In this document: positions 1-21,947 of the stretch, piece by piece
Layout of the letters: every line of letters begins with the position of its first letter
Position numbering within the stretch: the stretch's first letter is position 1
IMG/VR virus record: IMGVR_UViG_3300015207_000030
Location: 1-23,780 of that record
Source: a virus
Taxonomy: Duplodnaviria; Heunggongvirae; Uroviricota; Caudoviricetes
DNA: 23,780 bases
Strand: one strand, 5' to 3'
Notes under the pieces: generated by a model
Database searches by the model: none
Told to the model about the DNA's origin: nothing
What the model saw: the letters and a program-made list of their open reading frames with translations, nothing else
Translations under genes and position numbers: made by a program

Positions 1-342
1 AACGGAAGCCGCTACCATATGCTTAACCTCCACGCGACATTTACAAAGGGAACGGTCGAGTTCAGACTTTTTCAATTCGATGCGCCGAGCGACGGCAAAC
101 AAAATGGGCTACACGCGGGGCAGCTCAAGAGTTACATTCAGCTTTGTCTGGCACTGAGCGCACTTGCCAAGAACGCGAAAAGCGCCTCGCCCAAGCCCCA
201 GCAGACCGAAAACCCGAAATACGCGATGAGAACATGGCTGCTCCGCCTCGGCTTTATCGGCGACGAATTCAAGACCGCGCGTGAGACTTTCACAAAGCGG
301 CTCGACGGCAACGGTTCATTCCGAGCGCGCCGAGCGGCTTAA
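1..342 (+). CDS. Amidoligase-family protein (glutamine-synthetase-like fold), C-terminal part; gene starts upstream of the window
   Basis: Frame is open from base 1 (first listed Met at 19). The motif KGTVEFRLFQFD matches the G-T-x-E-x-R signature that lies near the C-terminal end of the catalytic domain in carboxylate-amine ligases, so the gene must start upstream. Followed by an AIG2-like gene, the neighbourhood reported for this family in Firmicutes. Motif recalled from memory. Confidence 0.5.
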   Translation, partial: NGSRYHMLNLHATFTKGTVEFRLFQFDAPSDGKQNGLHAGQLKSYIQLCLALSALAKNAKSASPKPQQTENPKYAMRTWLLRLGFIGDEFKTARETFTKRLDGNGSFRARRAA

Positions 343-419: not shown

Positions 420-872
420 ATGAAAAAACTGTACTTAGCTTACGGGAGCAATCTGAACACGGAGCAAATGCGCTTCCGCTGCCCGGGTGCAAAGCCCGTC
501 GGTACGGCGGTGATACGCAATTACGAGCTGCTGTTCAAGGGCTCGCGGACGGGCGCGTACCTCACGATAGAGCCGAAGCGCGGCGGCAAAGTTCCCGTTG
601 CGGTGTGGGAGGTAAGCGCCGAGAACGAACGGGCACTCGACCGTTACGAGGGCTTCCCGGCGTTCTACTACAAAAAGGATATGAACGTCAATGTCAGGCT
701 CCCTGACGGCACGGCCGAACGCCGAGCGGCTTTCGTGTACGTTATGCACGAGGAGCGTCCGCTCGGTGTGCCGACGGGAGCATACGTCGAATGCTGCCGC
801 GAGGGCTACGGGGAATTCGGCTTTGACGAACGGTTTATTGATAATGCAATCGAAAGGAGCGTGAATGTATGA
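420..872 (+). CDS. Gamma-glutamyl cyclotransferase-like protein (AIG2/GGCT family)
   Basis: 150 aa; N-terminal LYLAYGSNL motif (YGSN signature of AIG2/GGCT), later VAVWEV and LDRYEGFPAFYYKK segments typical of the fold; RBS AAAGGTGG about 7 nt upstream of ATG 420. Confidence 0.75.
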   Translation: MKKLYLAYGSNLNTEQMRFRCPGAKPVGTAVIRNYELLFKGSRTGAYLTIEPKRGGKVPVAVWEVSAENERALDRYEGFPAFYYKKDMNVNVRLPDGTAERRAAFVYVMHEERPLGVPTGAYVECCREGYGEFGFDERFIDNAIERSVNV

Positions 873-1072
873 ATAACAAGCACAGTGAGCGGCTTGGCGT
901 TGAATTCTGCCCGAAATGCGGCAAAGCGATAAGCGGCTATCCCGCAGTCTCGCGCGTCGACGGTTCGCCGATATGCTCCGACTGCGGTACCCGCGAGGCT
1001 TTGGAGAGCATTGGAGCGTGCGCCGCAGAGCAGGACAGGATCATCGAGCTGATACACAGGAATAGCCGTTGA
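869..1072 (+). CDS. Small zinc-ribbon protein (CxxC...CxxC)
   Basis: 67 aa with CPKCG and CSDCG pairs; start overlaps the stop of the GGCT-like gene (ATGA), suggesting translational coupling. Confidence 0.55.
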   Translation: MNNKHSERLGVEFCPKCGKAISGYPAVSRVDGSPICSDCGTREALESIGACAAEQDRIIELIHRNSR

Positions 1073-1080
1073 TATTCGTT

Positions 1081-1200
1081 TTGTGCAAATCCAACAATAT
1101 CACAATCCGATATTTGTGCACGTTTTTTGCGAAAAATGTAACGAATGTAACGAATGTAACGAACGAAGTGTGCTATAATTAAAATGGCAACAGAATGACC
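1081..1200. repeat. Copy A of a ~120 bp promoter-like direct repeat (copy B at 2839..2959)
   Basis: Aligns by eye with 2839..2959 at high identity. Contains TTGTGCA twice, an imperfect inverted repeat (CAACAATATC / GATATTTGTG), three perfect tandem 9-mers ATGTAACGA (1136..1162) and an extended -10 TGcTATAAT (1171..1179). Confidence 0.75.
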
Positions 1201-1224
1201 GTTCCGAACAAACGGCGGATAAAT

Positions 1225-1260
1225 AAAGCAACGGCAGCTCATTAACTGCCGTTGCTTTGT
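1225..1260 (-). terminator. Intrinsic terminator hairpin downstream of vapC; may also stop + strand transcripts from repeat A
   Basis: Perfect stem GCAACGGCAG (1228..1237) / CTGCCGTTGC (1246..1255) with 8 nt loop; A-tract on + strand upstream gives a U-tract on the minus-strand transcript; TTTGT follows on + strand. Confidence 0.6.
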
Positions 1261-1294
1261 ATATGGCACTTCCTTTTAAGAGTTCGTCGGACGT

Positions 1295-1699
1295 TCAAAG
1301 CGTTTCAAGAAAACTGCCGGGTTTGATCGCGGGGATATCGCTTTCCTCAAAATCGCGCGTGTTTTGGGTGATGATGTATTTGCACGAATTACGCTTTGCC
1401 GTGAGCATTTGAACGGAATCCTCAAAATCCCGCGCTTTAAGCCGTGCTGCTCCCAGCGTGTCTGCGGCTTTGAGATCGACAACGTCAAATATTGCCGCCA
1501 GCTTTATCACAAGATCGTCGGTTTTGTCGGGAGTAAGCTCGCGGCGGAGAATATACACGATATTCGCAATAGACAACGCGGAAACGATACCGTTTATCTG
1601 TCTTGTCTCGCACAGCTTCCATACCTCTGCGGACTGCTCAAAGCCTTGACGGCGTGAAAGCACATCTATCAGAATGTTTGTGTCAATCAAGACCTTCAT
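1295..1699 (-). CDS. vapC: PIN-domain toxin, VapC family
   Basis: 134 aa; N-terminal MKVLIDTNILID with the conserved acidic residue, plus DFEDS and IITQNTRDF segments typical of PIN nucleases; overlaps the upstream antitoxin gene by 17 nt. Confidence 0.8.
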   Translation of the reverse strand: MKVLIDTNILIDVLSRRQGFEQSAEVWKLCETRQINGIVSALSIANIVYILRRELTPDKTDDLVIKLAAIFDVVDLKAADTLGAARLKARDFEDSVQMLTAKRNSCKYIITQNTRDFEESDIPAIKPGSFLETL

Positions 1700-1916
1700 G
1701 CCGCATTACCTTCTCCTCGCGCATTTTTTTGTAATCATAATCGTTTTTTAGAACGCCCGTCAGCTCGTCGGTCAATGATGAAACGGTCTTTTCACGCGAA
1801 ATCATTCTTGCGACCTCTTCGCCGTTTTTGGTGATCCGGATTTCTTCGTTTGACTGCACCAGCTTCAGATATTTTCCGAAGTTGTTCTGCATTTCCGTTG
1901 CGGATACTGTTAACAT
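1683..1916 (-). CDS. Phd/YefM-family antitoxin
   Basis: 77 aa; N-terminal VSATEMQNNFGKYLKLV...ITKNGEEVARMIS pattern of Phd/YefM antitoxins; GGAGG RBS (complement of 1925..1930) about 8 nt upstream of the start. Confidence 0.75.
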   Translation of the reverse strand: MLTVSATEMQNNFGKYLKLVQSNEEIRITKNGEEVARMISREKTVSSLTDELTGVLKNDYDYKKMREEKVMRHEGLD

Positions 1917-1937
1917 AATAAATTCCTCCTTTGCATA

Positions 1938-1978
1938 TTAGCTAATTATATTATAGCTTATTTTAGCTAATTTGTCAA
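1938..1978 (-). promoter_or_regulatory. Consensus sigma-A-type promoter of the phd-vapC operon with two TTAGCTAA palindromic operator candidates
   Basis: On the minus strand: TTGACA (1978..1973), 17 nt spacer, TATAAT (1955..1950), both perfect consensus. The 8 bp palindrome TTAGCTAA occurs inside the spacer (1963..1970) and just downstream of the -10 (1938..1945). Confidence 0.6.
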
Positions 1979-2172
1979 GGGGAAAGTTAAGGAAAAAATA
2001 AGCTATGCCGTATAAAGCAAAGCGCACCTGCAATTTTCCGTGCTGTCCGAAAAAGGTACTGTGACGCCCCCGCGGGGGAGACTGCGGGCTCGTCGACCCC
2101 GAATTGCACGCAGTGACAGGCGAAAAAAAGGGGTCACTTTAATTGAAAAAGGTTGAAAGGAAGGTATAGGAT

Positions 2173-2823
2173 ATGCCGGGAAAAAGGAAAGCGGCGCAAA
2201 CAAATTCATTAGGTATGCAGAGCGGCAGCGGACAGGCGATTTTCTCTCTGCAAGCCGGAACGCCTATTTTTGTCAAGACTGCCGACGTGTGCTCGGCAAC
2301 GGGCAAAACCAATCAGTGGATAGGACAGCTGACTTCACAAGGGGTTATTCACAAATGCAGAACAAACCACGGTCAGCTGTACAGTCTTTTTGATATGATG
2401 CGGGCATACTGCGCATACCTTGAAGAACGCGCGAAAAAGGACGATGAGGATATCTGCCTGCTTGAGCTGCGAAAAAAACAAGCCGAAACCAAACTGAAAG
2501 AATCCAAGGCTGCTGTCGCGGAACTTGAGGCAGCCGAGTTTCAAGGAAAAATGCACCGCTCGGAGGACGTGCGCGCAATGACCGCCGATCTGTTGTATTA
2601 CGTTCGCGGTTCGCTGCTGGCGCTCGCGGGAAGATGCGCGGCAGACTGCGCCGCGTCGGCTGATCCTGCGGAGGTACAGAAGATCATAGAACGGGAGGTT
2701 TTCGCGATACTTAAAGACCTCTCCGAATACAAGTATGACAGCAAACGTTACGACGAGCTAGTCCGCGAACGCATGAAACGCAGTTCGGACACGGAGCTTT
2801 CCGATTTTGACGATGAAGATTGA
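2173..2823 (+). CDS. Terminase small subunit, lambda Nu1-like (winged HTH)
   Basis: 216 aa; N-terminal segment (VKTADVCSATGKTNQWIGQLTSQGVI...GQLYSLFDMMRAYCAYLEERAK) parallels the lambda Nu1 N-terminus as I recall it (TIQNW..QG...LYD...Y..R); coiled-coil middle, acidic C-terminus; sits upstream of the large terminase. Confidence 0.55.
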   Translation: MPGKRKAAQTNSLGMQSGSGQAIFSLQAGTPIFVKTADVCSATGKTNQWIGQLTSQGVIHKCRTNHGQLYSLFDMMRAYCAYLEERAKKDDEDICLLELRKKQAETKLKESKAAVAELEAAEFQGKMHRSEDVRAMTADLLYYVRGSLLALAGRCAADCAASADPAEVQKIIEREVFAILKDLSEYKYDSKRYDELVRERMKRSSDTELSDFDDED

Positions 2824-2838
2824 CGGATCGGTGTTGAC

Positions 2839-2959
2839 TTGTGCAAGTTGAACAATATCGCAAAACGATATTTGTGCAGCTTTTTTCAAAAAAATGTAAC
2901 GAATGTCACGAATGTAACGAATGAAGTGTGCTATAATTAAAATGGAAACAGAATGATCT
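2839..2959. repeat. Copy B of the promoter-like direct repeat
   Basis: Same architecture as copy A: TTGTGCA x2, inverted repeat, 9-mers ATGTAACGA / ATGTCACGA / ATGTAACGA (2894..2920), extended -10 TGcTATAAT (2929..2937). Confidence 0.75.
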
Positions 2960-2991
2960 TGCGGGACAGACGGTTTCTTTTAGAATATTTG

Positions 2992-3027
2992 CGGCTTGCG
3001 GTGTAATATTGCAAGCCGTTTCCTTTG
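2992..3027 (+). terminator. Hairpin plus T-tract between repeat B and the VRR-NUC gene (possible attenuator)
   Basis: Stem CGGCTTGC (2992..2999) / GCAAGCCG (3011..3018), 11 nt loop, followed by TTTCCTTTG directly before the RBS of the next gene. Confidence 0.4.
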
Positions 3028-3042
3028 TGAGGTGAAATTGAA

Positions 3043-3414
3043 GTGCAGCAAAAACAGCATATTGAAGATACCGAGCAGATACATCTTTTTGATTGGGCGG
3101 CGATGCAGTCGGGGAAATATCCCGAATTGTCGCTGCTTTTTCATATCCCGAACGGCGGCAAGCGTGACGCACGTGAGGCGGCGCGGTTCAAAAGAATGGG
3201 CGTAAAGGCGGGCGTTCCCGATCTGTTTCTGCCCGTTCCGCGCGGGAAGTTTCACGGATTGTTTGTCGAACTGAAAGCGCCGAAAGGAAAACTTTCCGAT
3301 TATCAGAAGCAGTGGCTTCAGGAGCTTGCGGCGAGCGGCTACGCGGCTTGCGTTTGTTTCGGTTTCGACGAGGCTCGGCAGGATATTATGAAGTATCTTG
3401 AGGGGAAATTCTGA
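3043..3414 (+). CDS. VRR-NUC domain nuclease (PD-(D/E)xK superfamily)
   Basis: 123 aa from a GTG start with RBS GAGGTG; motifs HIPNGG.R, GVPDL and FVELK...GKLS..Q..W match the VRR-NUC signature as I recall it. Confidence 0.75.
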   Translation: MQQKQHIEDTEQIHLFDWAAMQSGKYPELSLLFHIPNGGKRDAREAARFKRMGVKAGVPDLFLPVPRGKFHGLFVELKAPKGKLSDYQKQWLQELAASGYAACVCFGFDEARQDIMKYLEGKF

Positions 3415-3434
3415 TTTTGCAATCGATTGCAAAA
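3415..3434. promoter_or_regulatory. Perfect 20 bp palindrome TTTTGCAATCGATTGCAAAA
   Basis: Starts immediately after the VRR-NUC stop codon; perfect dyad symmetry read directly from the sequence. Confidence 0.5.
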
Positions 3435-3524
3435 ATTGCGCTGCGGAACGAACACGGAGCAGAATATGATTTTAGTTTGATAACCGCCGCGCTCTGCGGT
3501 TTTTCTTTTACGGAGGTGTAGAAC

Positions 3525-5441
3525 TTGCGAAACGAGACCAAGCGGCAGCGGGAGGCAAAGCTGAACGCGTGTATCACGAAAGTCTTGAACGCGATGAAGC
3601 CTCCCGAAATAAGAACAGTGGCGGAGTGGGCGGATAAGAACCGCCGTTTAACGTCGGAATCATCGGCGGAGGTAGGCAAATGGCGCACCTCGCGCACGCC
3701 GTATATGCTGGATATTCTGAACTCGTTCACCGACCCGAAGGTCGAGCACATTGTTGTGGTTGCCTCCTCGCAGGTCGGGAAATCCGAGGTTGAAAACAAT
3801 ATCGTCGGATACATTATAGATCAGGACCCCGGTCCGATATTATTTGTACAGCCGACGGTAGACGACGCGAAGAAATATTCCGAAATGCGTATCGCTCCGA
3901 TGATACGTGAAACAAAGTGCCTTAAGAAAAAGGTCGCGGACCCGAAAACGCGCGATGGCGCAAACACCAAGCGTCAGAAAGCGTTTCCGGGAGGAGTGCT
4001 CGTGCTAGCGGGTTCAAATGTTCCACATGATCTGTGTTCAATGCCTATTCGGTATCTGATCGGCGACGAGCGTGACCGTTGGGCAAAATCGGCGGGCTCG
4101 GAGGGCGATCCATGGGAACTGGCGGTCGCGCGTACAAGAACGTTTTACAACCGCAAGCTGATAGAGGTCTCCACGCCGACCGTTAAAGGAGCGTCCGCTA
4201 TTGCCAAGGCGTACAGTCTCGGTACTATGGAGCGTTGGAAAACACAATGTCAGCATTGCGGCGGGTATTCCGAGGTGCAGTTTGAAGATATCCGTTTTGA
4301 ATATGATTCCGTTGACAAAGATGAAGAGAAGATATTCGATATCAAGTCGATTTTCTATGTTTGTCCGATTTGCGGCGGCGTTTCTTTGGAGAACGAGGTG
4401 AAAAAACAGCCGTCGAAATGGGAGGCGGAAGTGCCCGAGGCAAAGGAACTGCATAAGACCCGTTCGTTCTGGCTGACGGCATGGGTCTCCCCGTGGGCAA
4501 CATGGGAGTCTATCATACTGCAATTCCTGCAAGCGGGTACGGATTCCGCAAAGCTGCAGGTAGTGTACAACACTCAATTCGGCAAGCTGTGGGAAAATCG
4601 CGGCGATATGGACAGCGAGGAGGATATGCTCGCGCGTCGCGAGGAATACGGTGCGGAGCTGCCGGACGGCGTTCTGGTGCTGACGTGCGGCGTTGATACA
4701 CAGGACGACCGCTTGGAATATGAGGTGGTGGGCTATGGACATTTTAAAGAAAAATGGGGCATAAAAAAGGGCGTCATTATGGGCAGACCCGATACAAACG
4801 AAGTGTGGGAGCGGCTTGATGATGTTATAGCTCACAAATACACATTTTCAAACGGGCTGTCGCTCGGCGTATCGTTGACGTTTGTCGATGAGGGCGGTCA
4901 TTTTACACAGGAGGTACGCAGGCGCTGCCGCGAGCGGCAAAGCAAAAACGTATTTGCGATCAAGGGCGCATCGGGCAGTCGGGATATTCCGTATACGTCC
5001 GTTCCGAAACGGCAGAAGATCGTAATAAACGGTCAGACCGTCGGTTCTGTATGGGTGTATGAGATCGGCGTTGACGCGGGCAAGCAAAAGATCTTTGACG
5101 ATCTGCGTGTGCAGACGCCCGGGGCGAATTACTGCCATTTCCCGCGCCGCGACGATTACGGTAAGGCGTTCTTCAAGTCGTATATGTCGGAACGCCTGAC
5201 ATATAACGAAAAACTCAAAAACCCGTGGCGTTGGGAAAAAATTCCCGGGCATGAGCGTAACGAGGCACTGGACTGCCGAAATTACGCAAACGCGGCATTT
5301 GCGGCACTCGATCCCGATCTTGACGCTGTCGAACATCGATTAAAAGCGATGTTAATCGGAACAACGGCAGGCGCGCCGAAAAAGAAATCCCCGAAAACAG
5401 CGAGAAGAAAGCCGACGGACACGGCATACAGCGATTGGTGA
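3525..5441 (+). CDS. terL: Terminase large subunit, lambda GpA family
   Basis: 638 aa; TTG start after RBS GGAGGTG; Walker A-like SSQVGKSE within a PYMLDILNS...LFVQPTVDDA...PMIRE block matching the lambda gpA N-terminal ATPase region; CQHCGG and CPICGG zinc-finger-like pairs. Confidence 0.85.
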   Translation: MRNETKRQREAKLNACITKVLNAMKPPEIRTVAEWADKNRRLTSESSAEVGKWRTSRTPYMLDILNSFTDPKVEHIVVVASSQVGKSEVENNIVGYIIDQDPGPILFVQPTVDDAKKYSEMRIAPMIRETKCLKKKVADPKTRDGANTKRQKAFPGGVLVLAGSNVPHDLCSMPIRYLIGDERDRWAKSAGSEGDPWELAVARTRTFYNRKLIEVSTPTVKGASAIAKAYSLGTMERWKTQCQHCGGYSEVQFEDIRFEYDSVDKDEEKIFDIKSIFYVCPICGGVSLENEVKKQPSKWEAEVPEAKELHKTRSFWLTAWVSPWATWESIILQFLQAGTDSAKLQVVYNTQFGKLWENRGDMDSEEDMLARREEYGAELPDGVLVLTCGVDTQDDRLEYEVVGYGHFKEKWGIKKGVIMGRPDTNEVWERLDDVIAHKYTFSNGLSLGVSLTFVDEGGHFTQEVRRRCRERQSKNVFAIKGASGSRDIPYTSVPKRQKIVINGQTVGSVWVYEIGVDAGKQKIFDDLRVQTPGANYCHFPRRDDYGKAFFKSYMSERLTYNEKLKNPWRWEKIPGHERNEALDCRNYANAAFAALDPDLDAVEHRLKAMLIGTTAGAPKKKSPKTARRKPTDTAYSDW

Positions 5442-5743: not shown

Positions 5744-6151
5744 TTAATCTTGAATGTGACATTGCTTTTTCAGACCGTCCAGAAGCACGGCTGAGAAATT
5801 CACGCCCTGTTCTTCGGCGATTGCGTTGACCCAACCGGGAATGGAGAGGGTTTTCTTTACGAAGTGCTTGTGCATTTTCTCGCGGAACGGTTTCATATAG
5901 ACTTCGATAAGCATTGGAAGCTCGTTTTTTTCAAGCTGAATATCCTTAAGCTCCGAGGGCTCAGGAATTTCCTCCTTGTCCTCCTCCATTCCGTAAAGGT
6001 GCAGCAGAAGAGCGTCTTTAGCGCTTTCGATTGCTTTTTCGGTGGTTTCCCCCGCGCTTACACAGCCGGGGAGGTCGGGGAAATATATGCCGATTGTTCC
6101 TTTATCGCCGTATTCCAACACGGCGATAAATCTGTATTTGTCGAGGTACAT
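5744..6151 (-). CDS. hicB: HicB-family antitoxin-like protein with C-terminal DNA-binding (RHH-like) tail; no HicA partner found
   Basis: 135 aa; N-terminal YRFIAVLEYGDKGTIGIYFPDLPGCVSAGETTEKAIESAKDALLLHL matches the HicB/UPF0150 signature (PDLPGC core); C-terminal KKTLSIPGWVNAIAEEQGVNFSAVLLDGLKK resembles an RHH/CopG-type segment; RBS AGGAG 6 nt upstream. Confidence 0.75.
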   Translation of the reverse strand: MYLDKYRFIAVLEYGDKGTIGIYFPDLPGCVSAGETTEKAIESAKDALLLHLYGMEEDKEEIPEPSELKDIQLEKNELPMLIEVYMKPFREKMHKHFVKKTLSIPGWVNAIAEEQGVNFSAVLLDGLKKQCHIQD

Positions 6152-6262
6152 AAAGTTCTCCTTTCGATAGTCGGCATTACCGAGGGTTTAACAATTATAT
6201 TGTAATACGCAATTTGTTACGTGTCAAGTGGCTTTTCAAAAATTTTTAAAGAAGGTGAAAAA

Positions 6263-7777
6263 ATGAGCGGCTATTCAGATGCGGGCGCGAGTTATGACAA
6301 ACGCGCCTTAAAAGCCTTTATAGCGCGTTCTCTGTCGGCGATAGAGGATATCGACTATAACAACTTTACGCTGCGGCAGCGTGCGCGTATGCTGTATATG
6401 GCGTCGCCGATAGCGGCGGCAGCGATCAACACCAACCGCACAAAGATAGTCGGCAAAGGTCTGCGGCTGAAATGCAACATTGATTATGAGACGCTGGGGA
6501 TTTCCCCCGAGGCAGCCAAGAAATGGTGCAGACGCACCGAGGCGGCGTTCCGCTTTTGGTGCGAGGATCGCCGCAACTGCGACGCGCTCGGAATAAACAA
6601 TTTTTTCGAGCTTCAAAGTCTGGCGTGCAAATCATGGCTGATGAGCGGAGACGTTTTCGTGTTGCTGAAGCGCGAAAAGGCAACTCCGCTCAATCCGTAC
6701 ACACTGCGGCTGCATCTTGTCGAAGCCGATCGCGTATGCACTCCCGCGACCGCGGACGGCGGTTTGTGGAACGTTACCGAGGGCGAGTACAAGGGTCACA
6801 AGGTGCATGACGGCGTTGAGGTCGACGACAACGGTAAAGCGGTCGCGTACCACGTCTGCAACATCTATCCGGGGCAGATGAGCGCAAAAACGGAGAATTG
6901 GGTGCGTATAAAGGCAGTCGGCGAAAAAACGGGGCTGCCGAATATTCTGCACATAATGGACGCGGAGCGTCCCGATCAGTATCGGGGCGTTTCTTATTTG
7001 GCGTCGGTTATCGAGATGATCCTGCAGCTGCGCAGATACGTTGAGAGCGAACTGTTGGCGGCGCTTGTGCAGACATACCTTACTGCGTGGATAAAAGCCG
7101 CAGGCGACACGTCAGAAATGCCTATCATAGGGGATCAGGACGAGGAGGACGAAGAGGAACGATATGACAAAGACCCGCAGATGGCTCCCGGGAACGTTAT
7201 ACATTTAAAGCCCGGCGAGGATGTTATTTTCGGCAATCCGAATATCCCGACAGCGGGCTTTGAGACGTTCTCCAAGACGATCATAAAGCAGATAGGCGCT
7301 GGGCTTGAAATACCGTATGATGTGCTTGTCAAAGAGTTCAATTCCTCGTATTCCGCGTCAAAGGGCGCGCTCGAGGAGGCTTGGGAGGCTGTCAAAATGC
7401 GCCGCGCGTGGTTCGTGTCGGATTTTTGCCAGCCGATTTACGAGGTCTGGCTTTCGGAGGCGGTCGCGCTCGGCAAGATAAACGCTCCCGGTTTTTTCGA
7501 TGATCCGCTTATACGAGCGGCTTGGTGCGGTTCACGCTGGGACGGCCCCGCGCAAACTCACCTTGATCCGCTTAAAGAGGCAAAAGCAAACGCTATACTC
7601 GTTCAGAACGGCTGGAAAACCAACGAGCAGACCACACGCGAGTATTACGGCGAGAATTGGGAGGAAAATATGCAGCAGCTCGAACAGGAGAACGGGCTGA
7701 AAAACGCCGTTTGTCCGCCTGTAACAAATATGGATTTCAGCGATGAGGAGGAAGACGAAGATGCCAAAAACGATTGA
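6263..7777 (+). CDS. Portal protein, lambda gpB family
   Basis: Listed ORF starts at GTG 6221; I prefer ATG 6263 behind RBS GAAGGTGA. The segment FETFSKTIIKQIGAGLEIPYDVLVKEFNSSYSASKGALEEAWEAVKMRRAWFVSDFCQPIYEVWLSEAV parallels the lambda gpB C-terminal region as I recall it; acidic C-terminal tail. Confidence 0.8.
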   Translation: MSGYSDAGASYDKRALKAFIARSLSAIEDIDYNNFTLRQRARMLYMASPIAAAAINTNRTKIVGKGLRLKCNIDYETLGISPEAAKKWCRRTEAAFRFWCEDRRNCDALGINNFFELQSLACKSWLMSGDVFVLLKREKATPLNPYTLRLHLVEADRVCTPATADGGLWNVTEGEYKGHKVHDGVEVDDNGKAVAYHVCNIYPGQMSAKTENWVRIKAVGEKTGLPNILHIMDAERPDQYRGVSYLASVIEMILQLRRYVESELLAALVQTYLTAWIKAAGDTSEMPIIGDQDEEDEEERYDKDPQMAPGNVIHLKPGEDVIFGNPNIPTAGFETFSKTIIKQIGAGLEIPYDVLVKEFNSSYSASKGALEEAWEAVKMRRAWFVSDFCQPIYEVWLSEAVALGKINAPGFFDDPLIRAAWCGSRWDGPAQTHLDPLKEAKANAILVQNGWKTNEQTTREYYGENWEENMQQLEQENGLKNAVCPPVTNMDFSDEEEDEDAKND

Positions 7778-8999
7778 ACGCGCTTGTTATGCGCTGGCAG
7801 CCGACAGCAAATCGGAAACGGCAGAGCTTACGCTTTACGGAAACGTTGTCAAAAGGCGTCCGCTCGAGATCGATTGGGATAACGACAGGATCGCCAAGTC
7901 GACGGATAATTATATCGTTGAACAGGAATTTCTCGACGATTTAAAGGCTGTCGGGAAATGCAGGAAATTGAATATCCGCGTGAACTCTCTCGGCGGCGAT
8001 GTGCATGTCGCGCTTACAATTTACAGCCGTTTGCGCGAGCTCACGGAAAACGGCACGGAGCTTACCTGTTCCGTGGACGGAGTGGCAATGTCGGCGGGTT
8101 CGATGATAATGTGCGCCGCTGATAAGGTCACGGCAAGCGAAAGCTCGCTGATAATGGTTCACCGCAGTATGACGATGCCGCCGGATTATCTTAACGCGGA
8201 CGAGCTTCGCAAAGAGGCGGAGAGAATGGACGAGTACGACAAGGCGATAGCGTCCTGTTACAAACGCAAAACGGGAAAGTCCGAGGCGGAGCTGCTCCGC
8301 ATGATGAGTAAGGAGACATATATGACGGGCGCGGAGGCAAAGGACGCGGGCTTTGTGGACGAGCTTACAAGCTCTGAAAAATTAATAGCGATCGCGGCTT
8401 GTGCGGATATGAGATCACTTATGGTGGGCGGCAGAACGTTCGATTTAATGGGCGCTCCCATGCCCTTGAATTTACCGACGGTAACACAGCCCGAGCCGCA
8501 AGGCGGCGCGGACGTTACAGATATATCACAAACTGAAGGAGGTAACGGAATTATGGCAAATAACTTTGATGAACTGCTTAAAGAGAACCCCGCTCTCGCG
8601 GCGGCTATCGAAAAGGAGTTAAAGGCAAAAGCCGAGGCGGACGTTTCGGCTAAGGCGAACGAGACGGCAGCTAAAGCGGTCGAAGCGGAGCGGAAGAGAA
8701 TAGCCGAGATCGACGAGATAGCGGCGCTGTATTCTCCCGAACTGGTGGAGGCGGCGAAGTACGGCGACAAGGCGTGTACAGCGCAGGAACTCAGCTACAG
8801 AGCGGCTGTCGAGAACGCCAAGAGGGGCAGGAAGTTCGGCGACGATCTTCTGGCTGACGCAAAGGATTCGGGAGTGGGCGGCGTTCATGCTGCCGTTCCG
8901 CCCGCCGAGGGCAATGGCGGCGAAAAGTCGGAGGACGAGCTTATGGCAGAGGCAAGAGCAGCCGTTAAGGCGGCGCTCGGAGAGGAGGTAACGGCATGA
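7761..8999 (+). CDS. Prohead protease (ClpP/S49-like) fused to or nested with a scaffold domain, lambda gpC-like
   Basis: NSLGGDV and GVAMSAGSMIM match ClpP-family serine protease motifs; C-terminal third is Ala/Glu/Lys-rich coiled coil typical of scaffolds. Start could be ATG 7743 or ATG 7761 (RBS GAGGAGG). Confidence 0.75.
   Translation: MPKTIERACYALAADSKSETAELTLYGNVVKRRPLEIDWDNDRIAKSTDNYIVEQEFLDDLKAVGKCRKLNIRVNSLGGDVHVALTIYSRLRELTENGTELTCSVDGVAMSAGSMIMCAADKVTASESSLIMVHRSMTMPPDYLNADELRKEAERMDEYDKAIASCYKRKTGKSEAELLRMMSKETYMTGAEAKDAGFVDELTSSEKLIAIAACADMRSLMVGGRTFDLMGAPMPLNLPTVTQPEPQGGADVTDISQTEGGNGIMANNFDELLKENPALAAAIEKELKAKAEADVSAKANETAAKAVEAERKRIAEIDEIAALYSPELVEAAKYGDKACTAQELSYRAAVENAKRGRKFGDDLLADAKDSGVGGVHAAVPPAEGNGGEKSEDELMAEARAAVKAALGEEVTA
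8553..8999 (+). CDS. Possible nested in-frame scaffold protein (lambda Nu3-like arrangement)
   Basis: Internal in-frame ATG at 8553 preceded by strong RBS GAAGGAGG (8535..8542); downstream sequence is the coiled-coil Ala/Glu-rich part of the protease ORF. Confidence 0.35.
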   Translation: MANNFDELLKENPALAAAIEKELKAKAEADVSAKANETAAKAVEAERKRIAEIDEIAALYSPELVEAAKYGDKACTAQELSYRAAVENAKRGRKFGDDLLADAKDSGVGGVHAAVPPAEGNGGEKSEDELMAEARAAVKAALGEEVTA

Positions 9000-9364
9000 C
9001 GGAGCTGTCAAAGAAAACAGCCGCTATGGAGCCCGACGATCTGGTAGTCGGCACACAGCCGCCTTTGCGGACGGTCGGCGCGACCGTTAAAGGCGGCGCG
9101 GGCGAGCTTAAACGCGGCACGATAATGGCAAAGGGAGCGGACGGACTGCTGGATATTCTCGGAAAAGATACCGAAGCGGAGGCTTACGGCATTCTGACCG
9201 ACGATATCAACGCTGCCGACGGCGATCAGCCCGCAGTGATCTACATCAGCGGCAAATTCAACGCCAACAAAATGATCGCCGCGGACGGCTATACGATCAC
9301 GGAAAAAGACAAGGATACGCTACGCAAGTACGGCATCGAGCTTACCGCCGCGCTGTCCTATTGA
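8996..9364 (+). CDS. Head decoration protein, lambda gpD-like
   Basis: 122 aa between protease/scaffold and major capsid; AYGILTDDINAADGDQPAVIYISGKFNANKMI resembles the lambda D core (GILA...T.Y.SG.F). Confidence 0.55.
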   Translation: MTELSKKTAAMEPDDLVVGTQPPLRTVGATVKGGAGELKRGTIMAKGADGLLDILGKDTEAEAYGILTDDINAADGDQPAVIYISGKFNANKMIAADGYTITEKDKDTLRKYGIELTAALSY

Positions 9365-9384
9365 TAAAAGGAGGGACTTTGATA

Positions 9385-10461
9385 ATGCCTAATACGCTTG
9401 ATATTTTCAGCTCCTATACAATGCTGGCGACTCTGGAGCTTGTTAAGCCCGAGACGCTGTTCTTTTCGTCGCGCTATTTCCCTACGGGAGCGGGGGATAT
9501 TTTCAATTCCGACAAGGTGCTTGTCGAATACACAAAGGGCGACCGCAAAATGGCTCCGTTCGTTTCGGAGAGGATCGGCGCTGTTCCCGTTGAGAGACGG
9601 GGCTACGAGATACGCGAGTTTGCGCCCGCGCACATCGGCGTTTCGCGCACGCTCACTCTGGACGATCTTAAAAAGCGCGGGTTCGGCGAGGCGCTGTACT
9701 CCAATACCAAGCCCGCGGAGCGCGCTCTGCGTATGCAGCTTGAGGATATGACCGATCTTAACAAACGCATTTCACGCCGCGAGGAGTGGATGTCGGTGCA
9801 GACCATGATCAACAACGCCTGCCCCGTACAGGAGATGTTTGACGCGAAAACGGTGGGCGAGGAGAAACTCGTACAGTTCTTCGGCAGCGAAAGCTCCGAG
9901 CATATTTACACCGTCGCCAATATGTGGAATTCCAAAGACGGAAACATAACCGGAGACGTTTATGTAATGTGCGAGCAGCTTGCAGGCAGAGGACTGAACG
10001 CCGTCGATCTGGTTATCGGCTCGGACGTTGCGGACGTGTTCTACGACGATCCTGTCATCGCGAGAATGATAGACAAAAACTCGGGCATCAATTTCGGCAT
10101 GATAAACGAGCAGATAGTTTATCCCGGAGTATCGCAGATAGGTCCTCTTAATTTCAGAGGGCACTGGCTGACCATTTATGTGGTGTCGACGTCTTACGAG
10201 GACGAAAACGGCGTTACAAGACCGTATTTCCCCAAAAATTCGGCTATGGTAACATATCCGAATTGCGGCCACAAAATGTACGGGCGGATCACGCAGATGC
10301 CTTACGGTTCTATCGATTACAAGACGATCGCGGCAAAACGTGTTCCGAAGCTTATAGTGGACAATGCCAACGATACGAGAGCGCTGTCGCTCAAAACGCG
10401 TCCGCTTACTGCACCGAGGACATACTGCCCGTACATCTACGCGGCAAACGTAGTGGGCTGA
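9385..10461 (+). CDS. Major capsid protein, lambda gpE family
   Basis: ATG 9385 behind RBS AAAGGAGGG; the N-terminal 90 aa share the pattern Y...P..F.S.YFP...MA.FVS...PV...G..EF.P with lambda E as I recall it; size and position fit. Confidence 0.75.
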   Translation: MPNTLDIFSSYTMLATLELVKPETLFFSSRYFPTGAGDIFNSDKVLVEYTKGDRKMAPFVSERIGAVPVERRGYEIREFAPAHIGVSRTLTLDDLKKRGFGEALYSNTKPAERALRMQLEDMTDLNKRISRREEWMSVQTMINNACPVQEMFDAKTVGEEKLVQFFGSESSEHIYTVANMWNSKDGNITGDVYVMCEQLAGRGLNAVDLVIGSDVADVFYDDPVIARMIDKNSGINFGMINEQIVYPGVSQIGPLNFRGHWLTIYVVSTSYEDENGVTRPYFPKNSAMVTYPNCGHKMYGRITQMPYGSIDYKTIAAKRVPKLIVDNANDTRALSLKTRPLTAPRTYCPYIYAANVVG

Positions 10462-19014: not shown

Positions 19015-19220
19015 CTTACACAACGGTTCAAGGGGATATGTGGGACAGCATTGCCTATAAATTGTACGGCGATACAAAGTTTAAGGACGTGCTTATTGAG
19101 GCGAATACCGAGTACAGGCGGATATACATTTTTTCGGCGGGGATCGTTCTGGAAGTGCCGGAGGTTGAAACGCGCGTCACGCCCGACGATCTTCCACCGT
19201 GGAAGAGGGTGAGCGGATGA
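19011..19220 (+). CDS. LysM-like tail protein (XkdP / P2 gpX-like)
   Basis: 69 aa; TVQGDMWDSIAYKLYGD...EAN pattern of LysM; position after the tape measure gene. Confidence 0.6.
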   Translation: MTYTTVQGDMWDSIAYKLYGDTKFKDVLIEANTEYRRIYIFSAGIVLEVPEVETRVTPDDLPPWKRVSG

Positions 19221-21022
19221 GCGACGCAAACAAAGCGCGCAGCGCCTCGGCGCAGGTTGTTTTCAACGGCGTTGATATAAGCGTGTATGTGAACAGCGAC
19301 CTTATATCGCTCACATACACTGACAATGAGGAGGACGAAGCGGACGATCTTCAGATAAAGGTGCTTGACCGCGATAGGAACTGGCTGCAAAAATGGCTGG
19401 ATACGCTTGTTTCCGATGCCGCGATCGGCAGCAGCTCCGAAAATACTGCGGGCTCTGTCGGCGCGGACGGTTATTCAGGTTCGGGCGGCGGTTCGGGCAG
19501 CTCCGGGGGAACGTCCTATAAAGTAACGGCGACAAGCGGCGTAAACGTCCGCACCAATACCACGTCCAAAGGCAAGATACTCGGCAAGCTGCCCTACGGC
19601 ACTGTTGTTTCGGTAAATAAATTTTCAGATGGCTGGGCGCAGATAAGGTACACGGGCAAAACGGCGTGGATAAAAGGAGAAAATCTTAAGCTCGTCGGCG
19701 GTTCGGGAAATTTCGCAAAGAAATCGGCAAAGGTCGAAAAGGGCGGTTTTTCGGGCGACAGAAACAGCGACTGGGCGATAGGCGACGAGGTAATCGCGAC
19801 GGGTACGCCGCAATATTCGTCCTACGGTCTGGGCGAGCCGGGCGCTCCCGTGAGCGGTCACAAGGGCAAGGTGTCGCATCTGAACCTCGGCGAGGGTATT
19901 CCGTACCCCGTTCACGTCGATTATCTGGGCTGGTTCGCGGAAAATCAGGTGCAGCGTGTAAACGGCGAGGACAAGCAGCCGGCGGAACGATCGGCGTGCA
20001 AGGGCTTAAAAATATCGGCGGCTATCGTCCGTAAGAATTGGAACGCGGACGGAAACGACGAAGTCCTCGACTGCGGACAGTTCGAGCTGGATAACATTAC
20101 GGTTGACGGTCCGCCGAATACCGTAACGATAAAGGCGACCTCGCTGTCGTATTCCAACTCCGTAAGACAGACCGAGAAAAGCAAGGCGTGGGAGAATGTC
20201 ACGCTTTCTCAGATCATCGAGTTTATAACGAAAAAAAGCGGCATGGGATATATGTACATCAGCGCGAAAGACCCCGTGTATTCGCACGTTGAGCAGTACC
20301 GGCAGAGCGATATCGCGTTTTTAAGCAAGCTCTGTCATAACGTAGGGTGTTCTCTCAAGGTCACGAGCAATATCATCGTTGTTTTCGACCAAGCGGAATT
20401 CGACCAAAACCCTGAGATCAGAACGATAAAATTCGGCAGAGATTACACGAAATACCGTTTGACAACCAACGAGAACGACAGCTACACAAGCTGCCGCGTT
20501 TACTGCACCGCTCCCGACGGCGGGGTCGTTTCCGCGACCGTTTTTTCTGATGATTACAAAGAGGACGGTAACAACGACCGTCGACTGGAGATACAGCAGA
20601 ACGTCGGCAGCATTGCCGAGGCGGAGGAGCTCGCCTATAAAATGCTCCGTCTGCATAATAAATACGAGTTTGAGGCGTCGTTTACTTTCCCCGGAGACCC
20701 CGAGCTTACGGCGGGGAGCGTTGTCGCGCTTGAGGATTTCGGCGCTTGGAACGGCAGATATGTCATTAAACAGGCGAAGCATACGCTTTCGCATTCGGGG
20801 CACACAACGCAGATAAGTCTGCGGAGAGCATTGCCGCCCGCGCCGTCGGAGGTTCACGGGGAAACGGACGGCAAGCCCGCCTATGACGTTGACGAGCTCG
20901 CGCTGCAGGTCATTCGCGGAGATTGGGATAACGGAGACGCTCGTTACGACAAGCTGACGGCGGCGGGTTATGACTACGATGCCGTACAGCGCCGCGTCAA
21001 CGAGCTGTTGGGAATATATTAA
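19217..21022 (+). CDS. Baseplate hub / late-control-D-like tail protein carrying an SH3b domain and a C-terminal CW_7-like cell-wall-binding motif
   Basis: ATG 19217 overlaps the LysM stop; Gly/Ser linker then YKVTATSGVNVRTNTTSKGKILGKLPYGTVVSVNKFSDGWAQIRYTGKTAWIK (SH3b-like, about 19517..19697); C-terminal ELALQVIRGDWDNGDARYDKLTAAGYDYDAVQRRVNELLG matches the Cpl-7-type CW_7 repeat as I recall it. Confidence 0.65.
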   Translation: MSDANKARSASAQVVFNGVDISVYVNSDLISLTYTDNEEDEADDLQIKVLDRDRNWLQKWLDTLVSDAAIGSSSENTAGSVGADGYSGSGGGSGSSGGTSYKVTATSGVNVRTNTTSKGKILGKLPYGTVVSVNKFSDGWAQIRYTGKTAWIKGENLKLVGGSGNFAKKSAKVEKGGFSGDRNSDWAIGDEVIATGTPQYSSYGLGEPGAPVSGHKGKVSHLNLGEGIPYPVHVDYLGWFAENQVQRVNGEDKQPAERSACKGLKISAAIVRKNWNADGNDEVLDCGQFELDNITVDGPPNTVTIKATSLSYSNSVRQTEKSKAWENVTLSQIIEFITKKSGMGYMYISAKDPVYSHVEQYRQSDIAFLSKLCHNVGCSLKVTSNIIVVFDQAEFDQNPEIRTIKFGRDYTKYRLTTNENDSYTSCRVYCTAPDGGVVSATVFSDDYKEDGNNDRRLEIQQNVGSIAEAEELAYKMLRLHNKYEFEASFTFPGDPELTAGSVVALEDFGAWNGRYVIKQAKHTLSHSGHTTQISLRRALPPAPSEVHGETDGKPAYDVDELALQVIRGDWDNGDARYDKLTAAGYDYDAVQRRVNELLGIY

Positions 21023-21032
21023 GGAGAACATT

Positions 21033-21224
21033 ATGTCCGATTTGAGAATTGGAAAGGTTACAAAGGTCAACGGCGGCAGGGTCAAAGTGCATTTCGAGGA
21101 CGTGAATATCGAGTCCGATTGGCTCGCTTGTGTGAACGGCGTTCAGAGCGTCGGCACGGTGGTGTTGTGTGCGTTCGCTTCGGGGTTCAACGGCGAGGGC
21201 TATGTATTGGGGGCGTTGGTATGA
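21033..21224 (+). CDS. Small baseplate protein (XkdR-like, tentative)
   Basis: 63 aa from ATG 21033 behind RBS AAGGAG; the listed longer ORF from 20970 overlaps the hub gene. Confidence 0.45.
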   Translation: MSDLRIGKVTKVNGGRVKVHFEDVNIESDWLACVNGVQSVGTVVLCAFASGFNGEGYVLGALV

Positions 21225-21616
21225 CTGTCGGAAGTCTTGGCGGCATTGTTTTCACGGTCTCCCCGAACAGGATCGAGACCGTGGACGGCTTTAAGCAAAG
21301 CGGCTCGGCGAACTATGGAAAGCATCAGCGGCACGGCGGAGATACGCTTCTGGAGTTTGTCGGACGTGACGCGGATACTATCTCGTTCAATATGTTATTG
21401 GCGGCGCAGCTCGGCGTTGATGTTGAGGCGGAGATCGCCAAGATCGTGAGCGCGGAGCAGTCGGGCGAGGCGTTAAGGTTCGTTATAGGCAAGAAAATTC
21501 TCGGGCGGTATCGGTGGGTGATAACAAAGCACACCGTGACCTACAAGCAGCTTGACAGAGAGCAAAGGCTGATATTGGCGGAGGTCTCCGTGCAGCTTAC
21601 CGAGTATCTGAAGTAG
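21221..21616 (+). CDS. Hypothetical baseplate protein
   Basis: 131 aa from ATG 21221 (ATGA overlap with the previous stop); synteny only. Confidence 0.45.
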   Translation: MTVGSLGGIVFTVSPNRIETVDGFKQSGSANYGKHQRHGGDTLLEFVGRDADTISFNMLLAAQLGVDVEAEIAKIVSAEQSGEALRFVIGKKILGRYRWVITKHTVTYKQLDREQRLILAEVSVQLTEYLK

Positions 21617-21623
21617 GTGAATT

Positions 21624-21947
21624 ATGGACGTTACGATAAATTCAAGAGAAGAATACGGCGGTACTTTTCTGGAAAACGATACCGTCAAGTCCGTTGTACA
21701 GAATATCGCCCTGCTGCTGAACACCAGAAAGGGCACTGTGCCGATGTACCGCGAATTCGGCTTACCTATGGAGTTTATCGACAAGCCGACAGATATTGCG
21801 GAAACAATGGCGGTGCTGGAGATATCCGAGGCTGTCGAGGAATTTGAACCGCGCGCCAAGCTCAAAGACCTGACGATCACAAAGACCGAAGAGGGCGCAA
21901 TGGCTGTAATAGTTGAGGTGACGATCAATGAGGGGAACGGATCATAA
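21624..21947 (+). CDS. Baseplate wedge protein, GPW/gp25-like
   Basis: 107 aa; VVQNIALLLNTRKGTVPMYREFG and EFEPRAKL fit the gp25/GPW signature as I recall it. Confidence 0.65.
   Translation: MDVTINSREEYGGTFLENDTVKSVVQNIALLLNTRKGTVPMYREFGLPMEFIDKPTDIAETMAVLEISEAVEEFEPRAKLKDLTITKTEEGAMAVIVEVTINEGNGS

Follow-up and report, generated by a model that had tools for sequence, protein, structure and literature searches.

The leader of the small terminase gene (terS) in this phage raises the question of where, and through which element, the packaged genome begins and ends. The window (i.e. the whole stretch of 23,780 nt that was analysed) has 256 nt between the start of an antitoxin gene (1916, minus strand) and the ATG of TerS (2173), and the first-pass annotation had proposed a lambda-type cos in this gap (1917-2172), with a perfect 12-bp G/C palindrome as its nicking site and the surrounding GTGAC/GTCAC pentamers as binding sites of the small terminase. 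The palindrome (CCCCCGCGGGGG) is present where it had been placed, and so are GTGAC at 2061-2065 and GTCAC at 2133-2137, while a second GTGAC, earlier put at about 2112-2116, occupies 2113-2117. The length of the gap is correct as well, but it cannot be taken as a single non-coding leader, since its left third (1917-2004) consists of the promoter and operator of a toxin-antitoxin cassette.

From a comparison with related phages, it seems that 2052-2148 is a cos of the lambda/N15 type, belonging to a temperate phage of Clostridia (Oscillospiraceae-type), and that the palindrome is a chance feature inside it, a reading to which we assign a probability of roughly 85%. In other words, the cos had been found in the right place, but via the wrong feature. 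The layout of the locus is given in Table 1.

Table 1. Features of the cos region and its surroundings (positions in the window; nicks, ends and binding sites are predicted).
Feature	Position	Strand	Basis and remarks
Amidoligase fragment	19-342		
Gamma-glutamyl cyclotransferase	420-872		
Small zinc-ribbon ORF	869-1072		
Lineage-specific insertion	1061-2050	.	about 990 nt; adjoins the left edge of Box A; boundaries approximate
Repeat copy D1	1081-1215		copy of the 135-nt repeat downstream of terS; 85% identical to 2839-2973
Hairpin in the insertion	1219-1264		
PIN toxin	1295-1699	-	Pfam PIN_3
Phd antitoxin	1683-1916	-	Pfam PhdYeFM
Toxin-antitoxin operator	1919-1945/1963-1989		inverted repeat; surrounds the promoter
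Toxin-antitoxin promoter	1978 to 1950	-	perfect TTGACA-17-TATAAT
Micro-ORF	2005-2064	+	19 codons; stop (TGA) inside Box A; last 45 nt of the insertion
Box A, AAAGGTACTGTGAC	2052-2065	+	cosQ-like; left edge of the cos module; conservation and position
Variable G+C-rich spacer	2066-2083	.	18 nt, no conserved columns; holds the palindrome (2067-2078)
cosN, GCGGGCTCGTCGACCCC	2084-2100	+	ungapped homology to the ends of relatives
I2-like segment	2101-2133	+	between cosN and the TerS site; CAGTGAC (2111-2117); A7 tract (2123-2129, bp 37-43)
R3-like predicted TerS site, TCACTTTAATTGA	2134-2146	+	bp 48-60 from the predicted left end; covaries with TerS
Small terminase (TerS), 216 aa	2173-2823	+	phrog_57, E 8e-22; ATG at bp 87 from the predicted left end
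VRR-NUC nuclease	3043-3414		between terS and terL
Large terminase (TerL), lambda gpA family	3525-5441	+	Pfam GpA_ATPase E 2.7e-74, GpA_nuclease E 9.8e-79
Lambda-family portal	6221-7777		

A family of homologous cos regions

A blastn search with 1900-2900 against 50,697 phage records gave no match, and relatives were reached via the TerL and TerS proteins, with 46 TerS relatives coming from IMG/VR and GTDB genomes. The leader from 2052 to 2148 aligns base for base with the cos regions of these gut Firmicutes phages, 68 distinct examples of which have the same composition, i.e. AGGTACTGT, 21-25 nt ending in GCG, an 11-mer, and CCC(G/A)A. Across 33 aligned representatives, columns 2053-2060, 2062, 2084, 2086, 2098-2100, 2112, 2138 and 2143 are invariant, and columns 2061, 2063, 2085, 2087, 2113 and 2116 are conserved in at least 90%. 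To the left of Box A the sequences of the different loci are unrelated.

The exact 14-mer AAAGGTACTGTGAC is found at at least 120 loci in IMG/VR, and at about 59 of 120 loci among the matches listed it is followed, 21-25 nt to its 3' side, by the cosN box GCGGGCTCGNNGACCCC. The window-specific form of the leader had no exact match in metagenome contigs or IMG/VR. Two contigs (L179 and L180) carry an identical TerS, with a leader that is identical throughout; neither of them ends at cos. An identical contig is present in sequencing run SRR2167616. The earlier placing of a lambda-type cos just 5' of the small terminase gene is supported.

Predicted cohesive ends

The ends of six related phages (Lily, Lagaffe, Pioen, Lelie, Shimadzu and nd4) all fall in the block that is homologous to 2087-2097, which begins 9 nt past the right edge of the palindrome and puts the predicted left end of the window's genome at 2087. 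By homology with these ends, the top strand would be nicked at 2086/2087 and the bottom strand at 2097/2098, presumably leaving an 11-nt 5' cohesive end, GGCTCGTCGAC. These positions hold to within a few nt. Among the deposited ends of the relatives there is a scatter of up to 5 nt: compared with the position shared by Shimadzu, Pioen and Lily, the repeat of nd4 is displaced rightwards by 2 nt and the first base of the Lagaffe record by 5 nt. In addition, a near-dyad, GGGCTCG-T-CGACCCC, is centred on 2093 and would move the nicks by 1 nt. Within the predicted cosN, G2084, G2086 and C2098-2100 belong to the invariant columns, and the cosN box is present as a single copy in the window, with 0.13 expected.

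The junctions are compared in Table 2. For Lily, a 12-nt 5' overhang (GGTGCGCGTGAG) was determined experimentally (ligation, a PCR spanning the joint, Sanger sequencing; PMC4472882), and the record reads ..AAAAAGGTACTTTG..GGGGCG/GGTGCGCGTGAG/CCCGAAA. The cos of Lagaffe, upstream of termS, was located by PhageTerm (PMC5883640), and the records of Pioen and Lelie were rearranged to PhageTerm termini, Lelie being called 5' cos (PMC11792537). The Pioen record reads ..AAAGGTACTGTGAC..GAGCG/GGCTCGATGACCCC and that of Lelie ..AGGTACTGGG..TTTACG/GGTCCGAAAGCCCG. The Shimadzu preprint does not mention cos. In general, the linear records of these relatives start about 80-120 nt upstream of terS.

Table 2. 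Genome junctions of the window, of related phages and of lambda and N15 (slashes mark the predicted, mapped or deposited ends).
Genome	Junction	Remark
Window	AAAAAGGTACTGTGACGCCCCCGCGGGGGAGACTGCG / GGCTCGTCGAC / CCCGAATTGC	predicted
Lily	..AAAAAGGTACTTTGGGGAGAATGTAAAGGGGCG / GGTGCGCGTGAG / CCCGAAATCC	record end joined to start
Pioen	..GAAAAGGTACTGTGACGGGGGTGCCCCACACTGAGCG / GGCTCGATGAC / CCCGAAACC	record start is GGCTCGATGAC
Shimadzu	..CCCTGCG / GTGCTTGCGAG / CCCAAAAAC	11-mer at both record ends
nd4	..AAGGTACTGTGACGGGCCCCTCTGGCCTGCGGT / GCTGGCGAG / CCCAAAAAA	9 nt at both record ends
Lelie	..GTAGGTACTGGGAGCGGCGTTTCAATCCTTTACG / GGTCCGAAAGCCCGAAAA	
Lambda	..ACGGGTCCTTTCCGGTGATCCGACAGGTTACG / GGGCGGCGACCT / CGCGGGTTTTCGC..	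fetched record
N15	..ACGGGTCCTTTCCGGCAATCCGCCCTGTTACG / GGGCGGCGTCCG / ..	fetched record

Whether the phage has defined ends at all could be questioned, as the class given by PhageTerm to Pioen and Roos is headful (PMC11792537), and Pioen has the same leader. On this reading, the leader would represent a pac site at which each packaging series is initiated by an imprecise cut. This is improbable, however, given that TerL belongs to the gpA family, that Lily has its defined overhang, that Lelie was called 5' cos and Lagaffe cos, and that the short terminal duplications of Shimadzu and nd4 are typical of cohesive ends. In fact, the record of Pioen itself begins exactly at the cosN homolog.

The contig ends of the IMG/VR relatives are mostly arbitrary; L033 is the only contig whose first base corresponds exactly to the predicted left end.

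The palindrome and the variable spacer

In the first-pass annotation the palindrome itself was the nicking site, i.e. the terminase would cut symmetrically inside it, with the pentamers as sites for the small terminase. A nuclease acting as a symmetric dimer would fit a perfect dyad, the cosN of lambda is partially two-fold symmetric (PMC9026076), and the palindrome lies at about 100 bp upstream of terS. Nevertheless, this reading has to be considered highly improbable. Not a single column within 2067-2078 is conserved among the 33 aligned relatives, which have the rest of the module in common, and in the closest relative (L037) the palindrome is broken, reading CCCCCACGGGGG, although Box A, the 11-mer and the right flank are identical to those of the window. 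The palindrome is also absent from Lily, Lagaffe, Pioen, Lelie, Shimadzu and nd4, whose mapped or deposited ends are all in the next block. Moreover, a 12-bp palindrome is expected in the window by chance: there are six perfect ones, compared to 6.1 +/- 2.6 in 200 shuffles, and 16% of the shuffles contain one made up of G and C entirely. When up to two mismatches are allowed, this palindrome is found as a single copy in the window versus 0.9 expected.

What the relatives do keep is a distance, as the predicted nick follows 21-25 nt after AGGTACTGT, with free sequence in between. Most likely, only the length of the spacer is constrained, and the palindrome is a chance product of a G/C-rich spacer, without a role of its own.

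A different possibility is that the palindrome is a lineage-specific hairpin or cruciform, or the site of a dimeric factor of the host or the phage, which would modulate the terminal cut or shield the right end of the genome. In the TerS subfamily of the window, several members show an inverted repeat at this position, with arms of 6 bp in the window, 5 in L037, 7 in L007, 5 in L044, 7 in L046 and 5 in L048; these repeats are mutually unrelated in sequence, and their individual P values are 0.002-0.03. Over 26 non-redundant spacers, however, dyad symmetry is not enriched, with summed best inverted-repeat arms of 84, compared to 80.4 +/- 4.3 for mononucleotide shuffles (P 0.23) and 78.8 +/- 3.7 for dinucleotide shuffles (P 0.11), and many relatives, including the phages with mapped ends, have no inverted repeat. 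Nor is the palindrome repeated elsewhere in the window, and folding is not better than that of shuffles for 2048-2110 as single-stranded DNA (z -0.32), with a z-score of -0.89 for 2005-2180 as RNA. A function of this kind is therefore unlikely for the palindrome of the window. The varied inverted repeats of L007, L044, L046 and L048 make a lineage-specific role possible, but do not demand it, and in part of the subfamily the spacer palindromes might serve as an extra structural device for adjusting termination. For the leader as such, a hairpin or RNA structure was rejected, given these z-scores and the missing match in Rfam.

Finally, the palindrome could be a transcription signal (an intrinsic terminator, attenuator or operator) governing read-through into terS, with transcripts coming from further upstream or from the region of the toxin-antitoxin promoter. 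It is located between the divergent toxin-antitoxin promoter and terS, and a weak promoter-like site on the plus strand (1972-1999) would let transcripts begin near 2005. Yet the palindrome lacks a loop, no T-run follows it on either strand, and a terminator scan of 1600-3600 gave nothing at 2067-2078. In addition, neither an Rfam match for the leader nor covariation or conservation was found, and the toxin-antitoxin operator is a separate inverted repeat (1919-1989), all of which renders a transcription signal scarcely credible.

The cosQ-like element

The conserved element at the left edge of the module can be compared with what is found in lambda and N15. The heptamer GGGTCCT, which we take to be the cosQ of lambda, lies in a block that lambda and N15 have in common, ACGGGTCCTTTCCGG (with GGGTCCT at -30 to -24 from the nick), followed by 11 variable bp and the GTTACG flank of the nick. 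In the window, AGGTACT (2054-2060) is located at -33 to -27 from the predicted top-strand nick, and in the relatives with a 21-nt spacer it is at -30 to -24, i.e. at the very position of GGGTCCT. As in lambda, a heptamer (5 of the 7 bases being identical) is thus found ~24-33 bp 5' of the nick and is followed by a variable spacer. Columns 2053-2060 and 2062 of Box A are invariant in the 33 aligned cos regions, and Box A occurs once in the window, where 0.09 copies are expected. Both sequence and position fit a counterpart of lambda cosQ, for which a role in termination would follow by analogy. In lambda-like phages the 7-bp cosQ is highly conserved, as are the CG pairs beside the nicks (PMC4669245), and nicking of the bottom strand at termination requires cosQ (PMC4856287).

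The small-terminase site

The segment that follows cosN resembles I2 of lambda, which occupies bp 18-50 and is rich in A and T, with runs of poly-dA and poly-dT (PMC4856287). Of its CAGTGAC motif, A2112 is invariant and G2113 and A2116 are at least 90% conserved in the 33 aligned cos regions, and every relative has an A/T tract at the position of the A7 tract. The motif containing GTGAC 2113 is either CAGTGAC or CAGTTAGT and is kept whatever the type of TerS, which argues against its being a specificity site for TerS. Read from the sequence, AGTGAC (2112-2117) and GTCACT (2133-2138) form a 6-bp inverted repeat around the A-tract.

A better candidate for such a site is TCACTTTAATTGA, a 10/13 dyad of which the motif is present as a single copy in the window, and which fits the binding of a helix-turn-helix dimer to one site. 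To look for co-variation, we aligned the TerS proteins, taken as the products of the first ORF behind each cos, and compared the sites at bp about 46-62. The site switches with the helix-turn-helix of TerS across three subfamilies, with cosQ and cosN remaining constant. TerS proteins with the helix TNQWIGQLTSQG (the window, L036, L041, L046-L048 and the L009 group) go with the site (T)CACTT(T/G)A(A/C)TTGA (= ACTTTAATTGA), those with the helix TKSRISQITGDG (L037, L007, L039 and L044) with GCATTAAACTAAACTCG (= CATTAAACTAAACTCG), and those with T.RR(I/V)QQL..DG (the Lagaffe and Pioen type) with CATTTCGTTACGC or GTTCCGTTCCGC. The best evidence for 2134-2146 as the TerS site comes from the comparison of the window with L037: their TerS proteins are 74% identical and their cosQ, cosN and I2-like segments nearly so, and the two differ exactly in the helix and the site.

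The pentamers that had been put forward as small-terminase sites consequently come out differently: GTCAC at 2133 opens the predicted TerS site and keeps that role, but GTGAC at 2061 is part of the cosQ-like box and GTGAC at 2113 of the TerS-independent motif. With 26 copies of GTGAC/GTCAC in the window (1.09 per kb over 23.8 kb), three within 77 nt represent a local excess; they are distributed one each over three different conserved blocks and do not make up a single repeat family.

Terminase genes and comparison with lambda, N15 and sequenced relatives

The similarity of TerS to the small terminase of lambda is marginal. Its N-terminal helix-turn-helix gives a weak match to Nu1 (hhalign probability 57%, E 1e-4, 28 residues), its best match in the PDB is, again weakly, lambda TerS 1-98 (6hn7_B, E 0.044), and it has no match in Pfam. 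With lambda Nu1 as the query, the TerS proteins of two relatives (L116 and L159) are matched with an E-value of 1e-4. TerL, the predicted enzyme for nicking cosN, is 55-59% identical to the large terminases of Shimadzu, Lagaffe, Pioen and nd4 and 39% to those of Lelie and Lily, and TerS is 37-39% identical to its counterparts in Lagaffe, Pioen and nd4 and 31% to that of Lily. The portal gene is followed, in this order, by genes for a ClpP-like protease, a gpD-like decoration protein, a gpE-like major capsid protein, a gpZ-like protein, a tape measure protein and a myovirus-type baseplate. Given the phrog_57 TerS, the gpA-family TerL, the portal, the protease and the gpD-, gpE- and gpZ-like genes, the head and packaging module is lambda-like throughout.

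The window has the elements of its predicted cos in the same order and orientation relative to terS and terL as lambda, along with a TerL of the gpA family and a lambda-like portal, gpD and gpE. In both, the nick (predicted for the window) has CG on its left side, the core of the cohesive end ends in CGAC (as in lambda GGGCGGCGACCT), and an A/T-rich tract precedes a TerS site near bp 50-60. The R3 of lambda is located at bp 50-65; in N15, a lone R3 occupies bp 48-60 and an IHF site is missing (PMC9026076). Lambda R3, GTTTCCGTTC, resembles the site GTTCCGTTCCGC of a sister subfamily. The differences are that the predicted overhang of the window is 11 nt instead of 12, that its right flank is CCC instead of CG, and that its dyad site TCACTTTAATTGA is unrelated in sequence to the R sites of lambda. 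Furthermore, the window fits one TerS site before terS, with no room for I1, R2 and R1. The complex cosB of lambda (R3-I1(IHF)-R2-R1) was not encountered, and the start of terS at bp 87, together with the single copy of the site motif in the window, points to the simple arrangement of N15 instead. As the host would be a Gram-positive anaerobe, a role for IHF is not expected.

The 'simple' cos of N15 is like that of the window in its single TerS site at bp 48-60, its terS start (bp 89, versus bp 87 in the window) and its gpA-type TerL. It differs in having the cosQ and cosN sequences of lambda, a 12-nt end, and an R3 of which the sequence is unrelated to the site of the window. With Lily, Lagaffe, Pioen, Lelie, Shimadzu and nd4 the window shares the whole frame, base for base, i.e. 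AAAGGTACTGTGAC, 21-25 nt, GCG, an 11-12-mer with CCC(G/A)AA, a CAGT-type motif, an A/T tract, a TerS site and terS. Compared to these phages, the window has another TerS subfamily, with another recognition helix and another TerS site. In addition, a VRR-NUC gene separates its terS from its terL, and a toxin-antitoxin cassette has been inserted directly 5' of the cosQ-like box.

Proposed mechanism and implications

By homology with lambda and N15, packaging may be envisaged as follows. A TerS dimer would bind the single dyad site (2134-2146) via its N-terminal helix-turn-helix, with the A-tract segment (2101-2133) setting the distance and the bend, by which the gpA-type TerL would be positioned on cosN. 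Nicking of the top strand at ~2086/2087 and of the bottom strand at ~2097/2098 would leave the 11-nt 5' cohesive end, and packaging would then proceed rightwards, such that terS and terL enter first. At the next cos on the concatemer, Box A, at ~25 bp before the nick, would act like lambda cosQ and allow the terminal cut.

For the window this means that the packaged genome most probably starts and ends at ~2087 and ~2097 and is packaged rightwards, and that the palindrome can be dropped as a false lead. The mechanism is already well known from lambda and N15, and the main gain is a sequence rule: the 14-mer plus the cosN box (plus the TerS-matched site) offers a cheap way to read the cos, the genome orientation and the TerS-DNA pairing of many uncultured gut Firmicutes phages. 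Whether AAAGGTACTGTGAC is the cosQ of Firmicutes phages in general, and whether cosQ, ~23-26 bp, a CG-nick, an A-tract and a single TerS site form one ancient module, extending from lambda and N15 to the phages of Paenibacillus, Roseburia, Faecalibacterium and Oscillospiraceae, is in our view an even bet. If this is true, the genome ends and packaging specificity of hundreds of uncultured gut phages would be readable from sequence, and the matched switches of TerS helix and R-site (as between the window and L037) would be natural swaps of specificity.

The toxin-antitoxin insertion and the micro-ORF

The left border of the module is also visible from the arrangement in L037. Positions 906-1058 of the window, in the zinc-ribbon ORF, are 80% identical to L037 2661-2813, a segment that in L037 joins Box A directly. 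Homology between the two breaks off at ~1060 and resumes at ~2050, from which it follows that there was an insertion of ~990 nt whose right end coincides with the left edge of Box A. This insertion carries the PIN/Phd cassette, the tracing of which gave PIN relatives of 38-39% identity and no closer ones.

The micro-ORF, which had been treated as doubtful before, runs from the ATG at 2005 to the TGA at 2062-2064 and encodes MPYKAKRTCNFPCCPKKVL. The doubt was justified: the ORF lies inside the lineage-specific insertion and has no homolog in any fetched locus (best tblastn E-value 0.11), and it is judged to be spurious rather than a gene. The same E-value leaves the idea of a remnant of an HNH-type or zinc-finger gene (MPYKAKRTC..C) unsupported. 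A partial match in another locus (MPISYKRTCN in L062, E 1.4) was rejected; it is on the other side of cos. In L037, which lacks the insertion, Box A is crossed by a different ORF that uses another frame; the zinc-ribbon ORF there reads through cosQ and cosN.

Probable cohesive ends in relatives

In an IMG/VR viral contig of 53.7 kb (L033), the first base is exactly the predicted left end, with positions 1-14 reading GGGCGGTGACG followed by CCC. This start is nearly the same as the lambda cohesive end (GGGCGGCGACCT), and the predicted small-terminase (TerS) site of the contig is of the type found in the window. Another single IMG/VR contig (L148) carries two cos modules, which share the same unusual type of 11-mer (CCCTCTTCGAC and CCCTCTACGAC) and differ in the type of their TerS site, being ACTTTACTTGA in one and CGTTTCGTTACGC in the other. 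As for Pioen, this phage is listed as 'headful' according to PhageTerm (PMC11792537). The start of its record PP479940 (record ends L173/L174) is nevertheless an exact homolog of the cohesive end of Lily and Shimadzu, its terminase is of the gpA type, and it may be a cos phage that was misclassified.

Insertions around the probable cos site and the terminase genes

Relative to L037 (the closest relative), the window has an inserted PIN/Phd toxin-antitoxin cassette, and the insertion point coincides exactly with the left boundary of the cosQ-like box. A second insertion of the toxin-antitoxin type within the packaging/head module would be the HicB-like gene, which separates the gpW-like gene from the portal gene. 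The VRR-NUC nuclease gene occupies the corresponding position in L037 (3818-4189). It is missing from Lagaffe, Shimadzu, nd4 and Pioen, in which terS overlaps terL.

A direct repeat of 135 nt (85% identity between copies) is present at the distal end of the toxin-antitoxin insertion and again in the interval between terS and the VRR-NUC gene, the latter placement being the same in L037 and three further relatives (L039, L044 and L007). Each copy contains three tandem 9-nt units (ATGTAACGA / ATGTCACGA), directly downstream of which lies an extended -10 promoter (TGTGCTATAAT). The repeat may be an activator-dependent (possibly late) promoter whose duplication served to restore the expression of terS.

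Features around cos and the terminase genes (window coordinates unless a relative is named)
Feature	Coordinates	Strand	Pfam E-value
Zinc-ribbon ORF homolog	869-1072		
PIN/Phd cassette	1061-2050		
135-nt repeat, first copy	1081-1215		
Hairpin in PIN/Phd insertion	1219-1264		
Operator-like inverted repeat of PIN/Phd cassette	1919-1945/1963-1989		
Perfect sigma-70 promoter of PIN/Phd cassette	1978->1950	minus	
135-nt repeat, second copy	2839-2973		
VRR-NUC nuclease gene, between terS and terL	3043-3414		8.8e-14
HicB-like antitoxin gene	5744-6151	minus	2e-16
Near-T-free tract upstream of cosQ-like box, Lagaffe (L005)	about 770-960		
Same, nd4 (L006)	about 860-990		
Same, Shimadzu (L004)	about 610-900		

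Sequence left of the probable cos site and make-up of the virion module

In L037, a small zinc-ribbon ORF upstream of cos (2624-2878) runs on through Box A (the cosQ-like box) and cosN to a stop in the CAGTGAC motif, and the cos site of this relative is therefore coding on one strand. Its homolog in the window has been shortened by the insertion. A non-coding tract of 150-300 nt precedes the cosQ-like box in Lagaffe, nd4 and Shimadzu. Its top strand contains almost no T (with runs such as CAAAGCAAAGCGAAACC), and this tract, strongly asymmetric between the strands, is absent from the window.

The head genes of the window are lambda-like, with a gpD-like decoration protein and a gpE-like capsid protein (8996-10461), while the tail end (19199-23073) is myovirus-like, with a gpD-type hub carrying SH3 and CW_7 domains and a baseplate J protein, which makes the virion module a mosaic.
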